A program made the position numbers and the translations under genes. The notes beneath the pieces were generated by a model that was given only the letters and a program-made list of their open reading frames with translations, was not told the DNA's origin and ran no database searches. From a virus (lineage: Duplodnaviria > Heunggongvirae > Uroviricota > Caudoviricetes), in IMG/VR virus record IMGVR_UViG_2734482558_000010: a stretch of 6,061 bases of DNA; one strand, written 5' to 3'. Within the stretch, counting starts at the first letter, position 1. Each line of letters begins with the position of its first letter. This document shows, piece by piece, positions 3,282-4,196 of this stretch.

Positions 3282-4132
3282 AACTGGAAGATTTACCGAA
3301 ATACTACTCCCCAAAATCCCCCGGCCTGACTGATGCATCGGCCTCAACGTCGAAAGATGCGCTGAGTATCACTGATGTGATGGCCGCGCAGGGCATGACA
3401 CAGAATCGGGCTGAGATGGGGGTTTCTGCGTTCCTTGGGAAAATGGGCATTAGTATGAATGACAGAGAGCGGGCAACAGAATTGCTGACAGAATATGCAC
3501 TCAGTCGGTGTGATCGCGTGGCGGCGTTAAGAAAACTCCCGGCAGAAATAAAACCGGCAGTGATGCGTATTATGGCTTCGTATGCGTTTGAAGATTATGC
3601 CCGTAGCGCGGCGAGCAAAAAACAGTGCCCCTGCTGTCACGGAAAAAAATTTATTGAAAGCGAGGTTTTTACAAACAAGATCCAGTATCCGGATGGTAAG
3701 CCGCCGGTATGGGCAAAGTGTACGAAAGGTGTGTATCCGTCTTACTGGGAAGAATGGAAAAAAGTCAGGGAGGTGGTAAAAGTTGCCTGTCCGGAGTGTG
3801 GCGGAAAGGGTGAGGTTTCCACCGCCTGTAAGGATTGCCGTGGGCGTGGTGTCGCCATTCATCGTGAAGAGTCGGTAAAACGTGGTATGCCTGTTATCAG
3901 AGACTGCCAGCGTTGTGGTGGTCGTGGCTATGAAAGACTACCATCAACGGAGGCATTTAATGCTATATGCGAGGTGACAAACCAGATAACACGCGCGTCA
4001 TGGGAAAAAACAGTTAAGAAATTCTATGATGCGCTGGTGACTCGGTTTGATATTGAAGAAGCATGGGCTGAGCGGCAGTTAAAAAAGGTAACTAGGTTGA
4101 TTTTTCCGGAATCTGTGGTAAATTCGTCATAA
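3278..4132 (+). CDS. Putative late-gene antiterminator Q-like protein (QuuQ/YdfT-like), 284 aa, with four Cys-pair motifs
   Basis: Sits directly after rusA and directly before a pR'-like promoter, pause element and tR'-like terminator. Contains CPCCHGKK, CPECGGKG, CKDCRGRG and CQRCGGRG (the last three are CxxCxGxG zinc-ribbon type). Family assignment is from position and motifs, not from a search. Confidence 0.5.
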   Translation: MKLEDLPKYYSPKSPGLTDASASTSKDALSITDVMAAQGMTQNRAEMGVSAFLGKMGISMNDRERATELLTEYALSRCDRVAALRKLPAEIKPAVMRIMASYAFEDYARSAASKKQCPCCHGKKFIESEVFTNKIQYPDGKPPVWAKCTKGVYPSYWEEWKKVREVVKVACPECGGKGEVSTACKDCRGRGVAIHREESVKRGMPVIRDCQRCGGRGYERLPSTEAFNAICEVTNQITRASWEKTVKKFYDALVTRFDIEEAWAERQLKKVTRLIFPESVVNSS

Positions 4133-4139
4133 CTATGGG
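4097..4139 (+). promoter_or_regulatory. pR'-like late promoter with promoter-proximal pause element
   Basis: -35 TTGATT (4097-4102), 16-bp spacer, extended -10 TGgTAAATT (4116-4124), then AACTAT (4131-4136) and GGG (4137-4139). Lambda pR', as recalled, has -10 TAAATT followed by the pause element AACGAT and GGG. Overlaps the Q-like stop codon (4130-4132). Confidence 0.5.
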
Positions 4140-4171
4140 CGTTTTATGCCTGACGTTAGAAGAGTTTCTAC

Positions 4172-4196
4172 AACCCGCCGCCGAGCGGGTTTTTTA
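4172..4196 (+). terminator. Rho-independent terminator (tR'-like) about 45-65 nt downstream of the late promoter start
   Basis: Stem AACCCGC (4172-4178), loop CGCCGA, stem GCGGGTT (4185-4191), then T-run through 4195 followed by ATT (the two T's at 4190-4191 are shared between stem and run). Confidence 0.6.

Follow-up and report, generated by a model that had tools for sequence, protein, structure and literature searches.

The 6,061-nucleotide (nt) viral sequence IMGVR_UViG_2734482558_000010, called the window here in its whole length and numbered from 1 at its first letter (all coordinates are window positions), covers the nin/late junction of a lambdoid prophage. Its gene for the antiterminator Q is followed at 4097-4198 by a short segment that an earlier note on this DNA had read as a late promoter (pR'), a pause element and a terminator (tR'). 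That reading is upheld by the homology of Q, by a layout shared among 16 modules, by the existing annotations of P22 and phi80, and by the pattern of conservation. We find that the segment is very probably a lambdoid late cassette, in which pR', a Q-binding spacer, a sigma70-dependent pause element and tR' accompany a Q of the Q-lambda family. Cassettes of this kind are defined by, and work through, a Q gene, pR', a Q-binding element, a sigma-dependent pause element, a terminator and the late genes (PMC9388147); the window cassette is a canonical, previously unannotated member of this well-known family. Its features are listed below.

3278..4132, plus strand: Q antiterminator gene, Q-lambda family, long form, 284 codons (PF03589; match to 7ubm)
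4093..4097, plus strand: site of an 8-bp deletion that has removed one AGGTAACA unit from between AGGT repeats (from copy number in relatives)
4097..4102, plus strand: pR' -35 hexamer TTGATT (from the sequence; invariant in 84 close relatives)
4103..4118, plus strand: 16-bp spacer TTTCCGGAATCTGTGG, ending in TGG, with an extended -10 TG at 4116-4117 (from the sequence)
4103..4118, plus strand: candidate Q-binding element TTTCCGGAAT-CTGTGG (shared motif; putative binding)
4119..4124, plus strand: pR' -10 hexamer TAAATT, identical to those of lambda and P22 (sequence comparison)
Between the -10 and the pause element, plus strand: 6-nt linker CGTCAT
4124..4129, plus strand: TCGTCA, positional equivalent of the lambda -35-like TTGACT (comparison with lambda)
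4131..4139, plus strand: predicted start A4131 and pause element, -10-like AACTAT at 4131-4136 and discriminator-like GGG at 4137-4139 (lambda register)
4145..4148, plus strand: TATG, a match to the pause-site consensus TNYG, +15 to +18
4172..4198, plus strand: tR' intrinsic terminator, stem AACCCGC/GCGGGTT at 4172-4191, loop CGCCGA, tail TTTTTTATT (terminator scan)
4131..4196, plus strand: predicted Q-independent short RNA of ~64-67 nt (from the start and terminator positions)

By homology, the product of 3278-4132 is a Q-lambda-family antiterminator. A Pfam search with the 284-codon product returned PF03589 (E=1.8e-53) together with a DnaJ-type CXXCXGXG match, and a phmmer comparison with the solved structure of lambda Q (PDB 7ubm) gave E=4e-41, with both the N- and C-terminal halves covered. 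Relative to lambda Q, the window protein has an insertion of ~60 residues in the zinc-ribbon 'arm', with extra CXXCXGXG motifs. This long form is common to phi80, SfV, Stx2c phages, ES18, ST104, YdfT of the K-12 prophage Qin, and Klebsiella and Erwinia phages.

The promoter and the pause element

The predicted promoter TTGATT-16-TGgTAAATT is invariant in relatives and has 8/12 hexamer matches; it is followed by AACTAT and GGG, all at the positions given in the earlier note. The parallel with lambda pR' that had been drawn there is exact, in that the -10, 6 nt, AAnnAT and GGG follow one another in the same register as in TAAATT-TGACTC-AACGAT-GGG of lambda. Indeed, the composite pattern TANNNT-N6-AANNATGGG occurs once in the window, compared to 0.01 occurrences expected from 200 shuffles, and it has exactly one match per locus, just after Q, in lambda, SfV, a Stx2c phage, PHB10, FSL SP-016 and K-12 Qin. 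In the P22 record, the first A of AACGAT is labelled as the probable 5' terminus of the late RNA, and by homology with this annotated end we place +1 at A4131.

The element itself carries the second-position A and the sixth-position T, followed by GGG, that are expected of a sigma-dependent pause element. In a -10 element these two bases are captured by sigma region 2, and neither A+2 nor T+6 ever changes in all modules and ~200 close relatives. Positions +3 and +4 vary freely (AACGAT, AATGAT, AACTAT, AACAAT, AATAAT and AAAGAT are all found). The GGG is kept in 84 close relatives and in most of the diverged modules, with GGA in P22 and AGA in ES18, ST104 and EhrS_49. This conservation pattern fits sigma recognition. 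For the scrunched sigma-dependent pause, the published consensus T-N-Y-G occupies +14 to +17 in lambda (10.1101/2022.01.24.477500); the window TATG is displaced by 1 nt from the lambda position, and the natural variants TACG and TGTG still fit TNYG. From the position of TATG, a pause with a 17-nt RNA is predicted. Farther into the leader, all modules of the AACGAT/AACGCT type have a CGTT tetramer at +20 to +28 (window 4154-4157, +24 to +27) and then an A/G-rich tract. The tetramer spans modules from lambda and P22 to Klebsiella phages (L001, L086, L087, L089, L092, L093 and L096 in our set), and the remaining leader is diverged.

The lambda Q-binding element is located between the -35 and the -10 (PMC9388147). 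A motif GAA-N3-5-(C/T)TGG is found at the matching place in lambda, P22, phi80, PHB10, Kpn_R1 and EhrS_49, and the phi80 record annotates a Q site at the equivalent place, right after the -35. We regard GAA-N3-5-YTGG in the window spacer as a candidate Q-binding element. Q also repositions sigma region 4 onto a -35-like element in lambda (10.1101/2022.03.25.485794); at this position lambda has TTGACT, and sister subgroups of the window module carry TTGCCC or TTGCTC.

Comparison with other Q modules

The comparison covered the region 3' of Q in 16 modules, with Q proteins that share 39-100% identity with that of the window, the diverse ones having been gathered by tblastn against phage records and by an alignment-based scan. 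All 16 have a -10, then 6-7 nt, a pause element and an intrinsic terminator, all 3' of Q. The pause element is AACGAT in the common form, AACGCT in phi80-like modules and AACAGT or AACACT in ES18-like modules. The layout is found after Q in lambda, P22, phi80, SfV, Stx2c and Stx2a phages, K-12 Qin, and Klebsiella and Salmonella phages. Moreover, parts of it are already annotated in GenBank: the P22 record has a promoter, a qut-like site, a late-RNA 5' terminus and t-late, while the phi80 record has the -35 and -10 of pR', a Q-binding site and a terminator.

With lambda pR'-qut-tR' the window shares a homologous Q, the -10 TAAATT, 6 nt to AACnAT and GGG, a TNYG site and a terminator before the late genes. 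It differs from lambda in four respects. The lambda leader is much longer than the ~65 nt of the window; the lambda spacer is 17 bp and the -35-like TTGACT is good, as against 16 bp, an extended -10 TG and a weak TCGTCA in the window; lambda Q has 207 residues and a simple zinc ribbon, whereas the arm of the window Q has the ~60-residue insertion, an extra zinc finger; and the distance from the Q stop to the -35 is ~42 nt in lambda, compared to 5 nt in the normal allele of the window type and an overlap in the window allele. P22 (gene 23, P-late, t-late) and phi80 (gene 17, pR') have Q-lambda-family cassettes with short leaders (OQ031658, NC_021190), the terminator lying at +31 to +59 from the annotated 5' end in P22 and at about +47 to +75 in phi80, and the phi80 Q is of the long form, like that of the window. 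Both differ from the window in the sequences of the spacer (Q-binding), leader and terminator, and phi80 also in its pause element, AACGCT. The same cassette follows ydfT (quuQ) in K-12 Qin, with TTGCAT-17-TAAAAT, 6 nt, AACGAT GGG and a terminator at +44 to +63 (T-run +60 to +63), but the Qin Q is only 42% identical to that of the window and belongs to an SfV-like subgroup. The Qin cassette (L098, 4361-4435) corresponds to NC_000913.3 1,642,360-1,642,434 on the minus strand and is unannotated in the K-12 record; its transcript is predicted to begin at 1,642,422 and to end at about 1,642,360-1,642,363.

The segment 3900-4320 is present in 1244 of 5426 complete E. coli genomes (~23%), often in prophage remnants, and also in phages such as mEp460; E. 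coli 55989 is one strain with the module. In relatives of ~80% identity, homology stops at query position 296-301 of this segment, which is the end of the terminator; Q-pR'-tR' thus travels as one mosaic module. The breakpoint falls at 4195-4200, straight after the T-run, where Q-pR'-tR' is joined to ...TTGCGGAATTAATT and tRNAs, as in the window, or alternatively, in a Stx2a phage, to ...GACTGAAATC followed by an open reading frame (ORF), a DNA methylase, tRNAs and stx2.

The terminator and the predicted short RNA

The stem of tR' has 7 bp (5 G-C pairs) with a 6-nt loop, and its T-run occupies 4190-4195. With +1 at A4131, the hairpin extends from +42 to +61 and the T-run from +60 to +65. The short RNA foreseen in the earlier note is thus retained as a prediction, but at ~64-67 nt it would be slightly longer than the 'roughly 60 nt' proposed. 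Nor is a very short RNA a special feature of this module. In 15 of the 16 modules the end of the first T-run falls between +56 and +74 (at +65 in the window), so a very short terminated RNA is the rule in this family; the exception is lambda, the sole module without a terminator in that interval, whose leader we checked across its first 90 nt. The lambda leader, known as 6S RNA, is ~194 nt long. Short late-promoter RNAs were previously reported for phages 21, phi80, 82 and P22, and the lambda 6S RNA is cited in the same work merely as an abundant short transcript (PMC7547250).

The leader RNA is predicted to fold with a minimum free energy of -19 kcal/mol (z=-1.9) into two small hairpins and the terminator. 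Members of the close subgroup share the stem of the terminator and vary in its loop; subfamilies differ entirely in hairpin sequence and agree in where the hairpin lies. RNAalifold returned no consensus structure for 15 divergent leaders, because the terminators of different subfamilies are not alignable, and we relied on per-sequence folds. An Rfam scan at E<=1 found no family covering the leader at or above its gathering score. The scan did return a sub-threshold Trp_leader match over 4092-4198 (25.7 bits versus a gathering score of 41, E=0.058), an identity that we reject since the match is below threshold and reflects the terminator only.

The Trp_leader match and the presence of a 45-codon ORF at 4135-4272, which starts at the ATG of 4135, would both be expected if the segment were a leader-peptide attenuator. 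We consider this extremely improbable: the ATG belongs to the AACnATGGG pause motif, the ORF extends through the terminator into a tRNA, the equivalent ATG of lambda meets a stop after two codons, and the frame is not conserved among modules, with no conserved peptide in sequence comparisons. The small ORF was likewise rejected as a gene, being an artefact of AACnATGGG.

A different suggestion is that the ~65-nt RNA has a role beyond the switch, as a trans-acting, Hfq-binding small RNA (sRNA) like StxS of Stx phages or IsrK of Gifsy-1. The module is carried by ~23% of complete E. coli genomes, often in prophage remnants, and the leader hardly varies from +12 to +37, even in relatives whose Q has just ~80% identity at its end; in all modules an A/G-rich (ARN-like) tract precedes a U-tail terminator. 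There is also the precedent of StxS, in Stx1 and Stx2a phages, likewise a short constitutive RNA made in the lysogen from an antiterminated late promoter 5' of tRNAs and late genes (PMC7547250), although the window RNA is a prediction. StxS differs, however, in that it begins as a primary transcript of 258 nt, which RNase E shortens to 74 nt, and that both Hfq binding and target regulation were shown for it (PMC7547250); we saw no sequence similarity between StxS and the window leader. The conservation of the leader can be explained by the constraints of pausing and Q loading and by recent common ancestry, no Rfam family is matched, and the Pas sRNAs known from this part of the prophage are separate elements. 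On balance, an additional trans-acting function seems unlikely to us. We specifically rejected the Pas sRNAs as identities for this RNA: PasD is a relative of STnc100, and the other two, PasA and PasC, adjoin holin genes.

A rare deletion allele of Q

The earlier note remarked that the promoter overlaps the Q stop codon and called this unusually compact. The overlap is real, but comparison with relatives indicates that it is an accident of a rare deletion allele and no design feature. The usual allele reads ...AAG GTA ACT AGG TAA CAAGG TTGATT, so that Q has 273 residues, ends in ...KKVTR and stops 5 nt short of the -35. Most relatives have one copy of the unit AGGTAACA, L038 has two, and the window and L006-L011 have none; this range of 0, 1 or 2 copies suggests replication slippage. 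The 8-bp deletion removes the normal stop, and thus the frame continues for 11 codons (Q residues 274-284) to the TAA at 4130-4132. The ungapped, 0-copy allele is found in only 4 of the 1235 complete E. coli genomes that have the junction.

The ...KKVTR end aligns with the end of lambda Q, ...NAVTR. Indeed, ...VTR is kept in all 14 aligned Q proteins, and the window Q alone adds an 11-residue tail, LIFPESVVNSS. Loading of lambda Q involves a refolding of residues 195-207, and the flap-tip helix of RNA polymerase is touched by L202 and T206; in the alignment, L268 and T272 of the window Q are the conserved equivalents of these two residues. We therefore considered whether the switch is broken in the window copy, such that the short RNA is made and the tailed Q is unable to load or antiterminate, the locus being a fossil of a defective prophage. 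The rarity of the allele, the conservation of the VTR end that the tail follows and the part this end plays in lambda would be consistent with such a loss, and in E. coli TK3889 the same allele sits in a prophage remnant that starts at hokD beside host genes. Against it, the allele is found on several independent contigs in two different downstream contexts, and C-terminal extensions are sometimes tolerated. We regard a broken switch as possible, though doubtful.

Proposed mechanism and evidence against it

If the cassette works as it does in lambda, sigma70 holoenzyme would start constitutively at A4131. Sigma region 2 would then re-bind AACTAT (+1 to +6), aided by GGG, and RNA polymerase would scrunch and pause at ~+17 at TATG. 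Without Q, escape would be slow and termination would occur at the hairpin and T-run, at about +64 to +67, to give the ~65-nt RNA. With Q, the protein would bind the spacer DNA and load onto the paused complex, and the polymerase would read through tR' into the tRNAs and lysis genes. In the window copy, the 8-bp slippage deletion has fused the end of Q to the promoter and given Q its 11-residue tail.

Several points weigh against this interpretation. A literature search found no transcript, pause or termination data for the window module or for its K-12 Qin (quuQ/ydfT) homologue, and turned up nothing specific on quuQ/ydfT sRNAs or in sigma-pause maps that would take in Qin. The -35-like TCGTCA matches TTGACA at only 4/6 positions, lacks the TTG and is weak. 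The terminator stem is modest, with 5 G-C pairs and about -10 kcal/mol. Antitermination by the window copy of Q may be impaired by the tail, since it sits on the C-terminus that in lambda Q refolds and contacts the flap-tip helix. Finally, a generic promoter scan does not report this site, in which the hexamers match at 8/12 and the spacer is 16 bp. The threshold of the scan is 9/12 hexamer matches, with no credit given for an extended -10 TG, and the miss is thus a limit of the scan and no evidence against the site; lambda pR' itself scores just 9/12.

The failure of the scan to make a call is what would be expected if the hairpin were a mere terminator of the early/Q transcript and the promoter- and pause-like sequences were chance matches. 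However, the composite motif was expected only 0.01 times, and the position and the critical bases are conserved across Q proteins down to 40% identity, which makes chance matches a very improbable explanation.

Recurrent variation at +3, +4 and +11

To describe variation in and around the pause element we used an alignment of 83 close relatives over 3278-4200, which has 940 columns, 178 of them variable. Among the 940, the most variable column is +11 (4141), with +3 (4133) third and +4 (4134) fifth. In this set A+2, A+5, T+6 and GGG are unchanged. The number of changes was obtained by Fitch parsimony on a neighbour-joining tree built without columns +3, +4 and +11:

+3 (4133): 11 steps
+11 (4141): 9 steps
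+4 (4134): 5 steps
For comparison, variable columns: median 1 step; highest other column 5 steps

All four combinations of C/T at +3 and G/T at +11 are seen. As these positions are only 8 bp apart, the four combinations are better explained by recurrent mutation than by recombination. Most of the variation falls within the subgroup to which the window belongs, that with the CGTCAT linker. In the TTGCCC and TTGCTC subgroups almost every member has AACGAT, although these two may have been clonally oversampled. That +3, +4 and +11 are true hot spots of recurrent mutation is a tentative and rather improbable reading. If they are, it is conceivable that RNA polymerase in a long-lived scrunched pause exposes non-template bases to damage, or that selection has repeatedly retuned the strength of the pause or the 5' end of an abundant ~65-nt RNA that about one in four E. 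coli genomes would carry. CpG-type deamination was rejected as the cause of the +3/+4 variation because it leaves the G-to-T and G-to-C changes at +11 unexplained.

Neighbouring genes

The remaining annotated features of the window are as follows.

939-1264: sok/hok
1842-2900: DUF968 gene
2901-3281: rusA
4235..4487, plus strand: tRNA-Ile/Met(CAT) and tRNA-Arg(TCT), the first cargo of the predicted late transcript (ARAGORN, Rfam)
5442-5518: third tRNA gene, tRNA-Arg(TCT), a near-duplicate of the second
5595-5784: STnc100-family sRNA (RF02076; 123.6 bits, a strong Rfam match)

Late genes do lie downstream of the cassette: the tRNAs and STnc100 in the window itself, and lysis genes in E. coli TK3889, which has a near-identical locus with the same Q allele. 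There, Q is followed by tRNA-Ile, tRNA-Arg, small genes, the holin gene essD, lysozyme and Rz, and the lysis genes begin ~2.6 kb downstream.

Within 939-1354, the hok/sok toxin-antitoxin module (sok, 112 bits; Hok, PF01848) has a terminator after it and then a weak isrK-like match at 1273-1354 (25.8 bits, which is below threshold). A run of 269 N (5133-5401), masked or unsequenced, separates the second tRNA gene from the third. A possible separate tRNA promoter, TTGCGG-17-TATTAT at 4197-4225, begins inside the terminator tail; its -10 ends 9 nt before tRNA(CAT) (4235), it has a GC-rich discriminator, and it scores 8/12 only. A second, weak STnc100 copy lies in the late leader at 5823-6011 (21.8 bits, E=0.14). 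STnc100 is reportedly related to the PasD sRNAs of pathogenic E. coli.

Implications

Our analysis leaves the current understanding of Q antitermination unchanged. It provides a transferable annotation of pR', pause element and tR' for a Q module that >1200 complete E. coli genomes carry unannotated. It also draws attention to a rare allele of Q in which the C-terminus is altered. Since the cassette has a homologue in Qin, the prediction can be checked in existing K-12 transcriptome data. Within its own family, the long 6S leader of lambda is atypical. The natural pause-element variants AACGAT, AATGAT, AACTAT, AACAAT and AATAAT may offer a ready-made allelic series for sigma-dependent pausing. 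The module also occurs in some phages of the Stx2a and Stx2c types, in which it would gate the genes for lysis and toxin.

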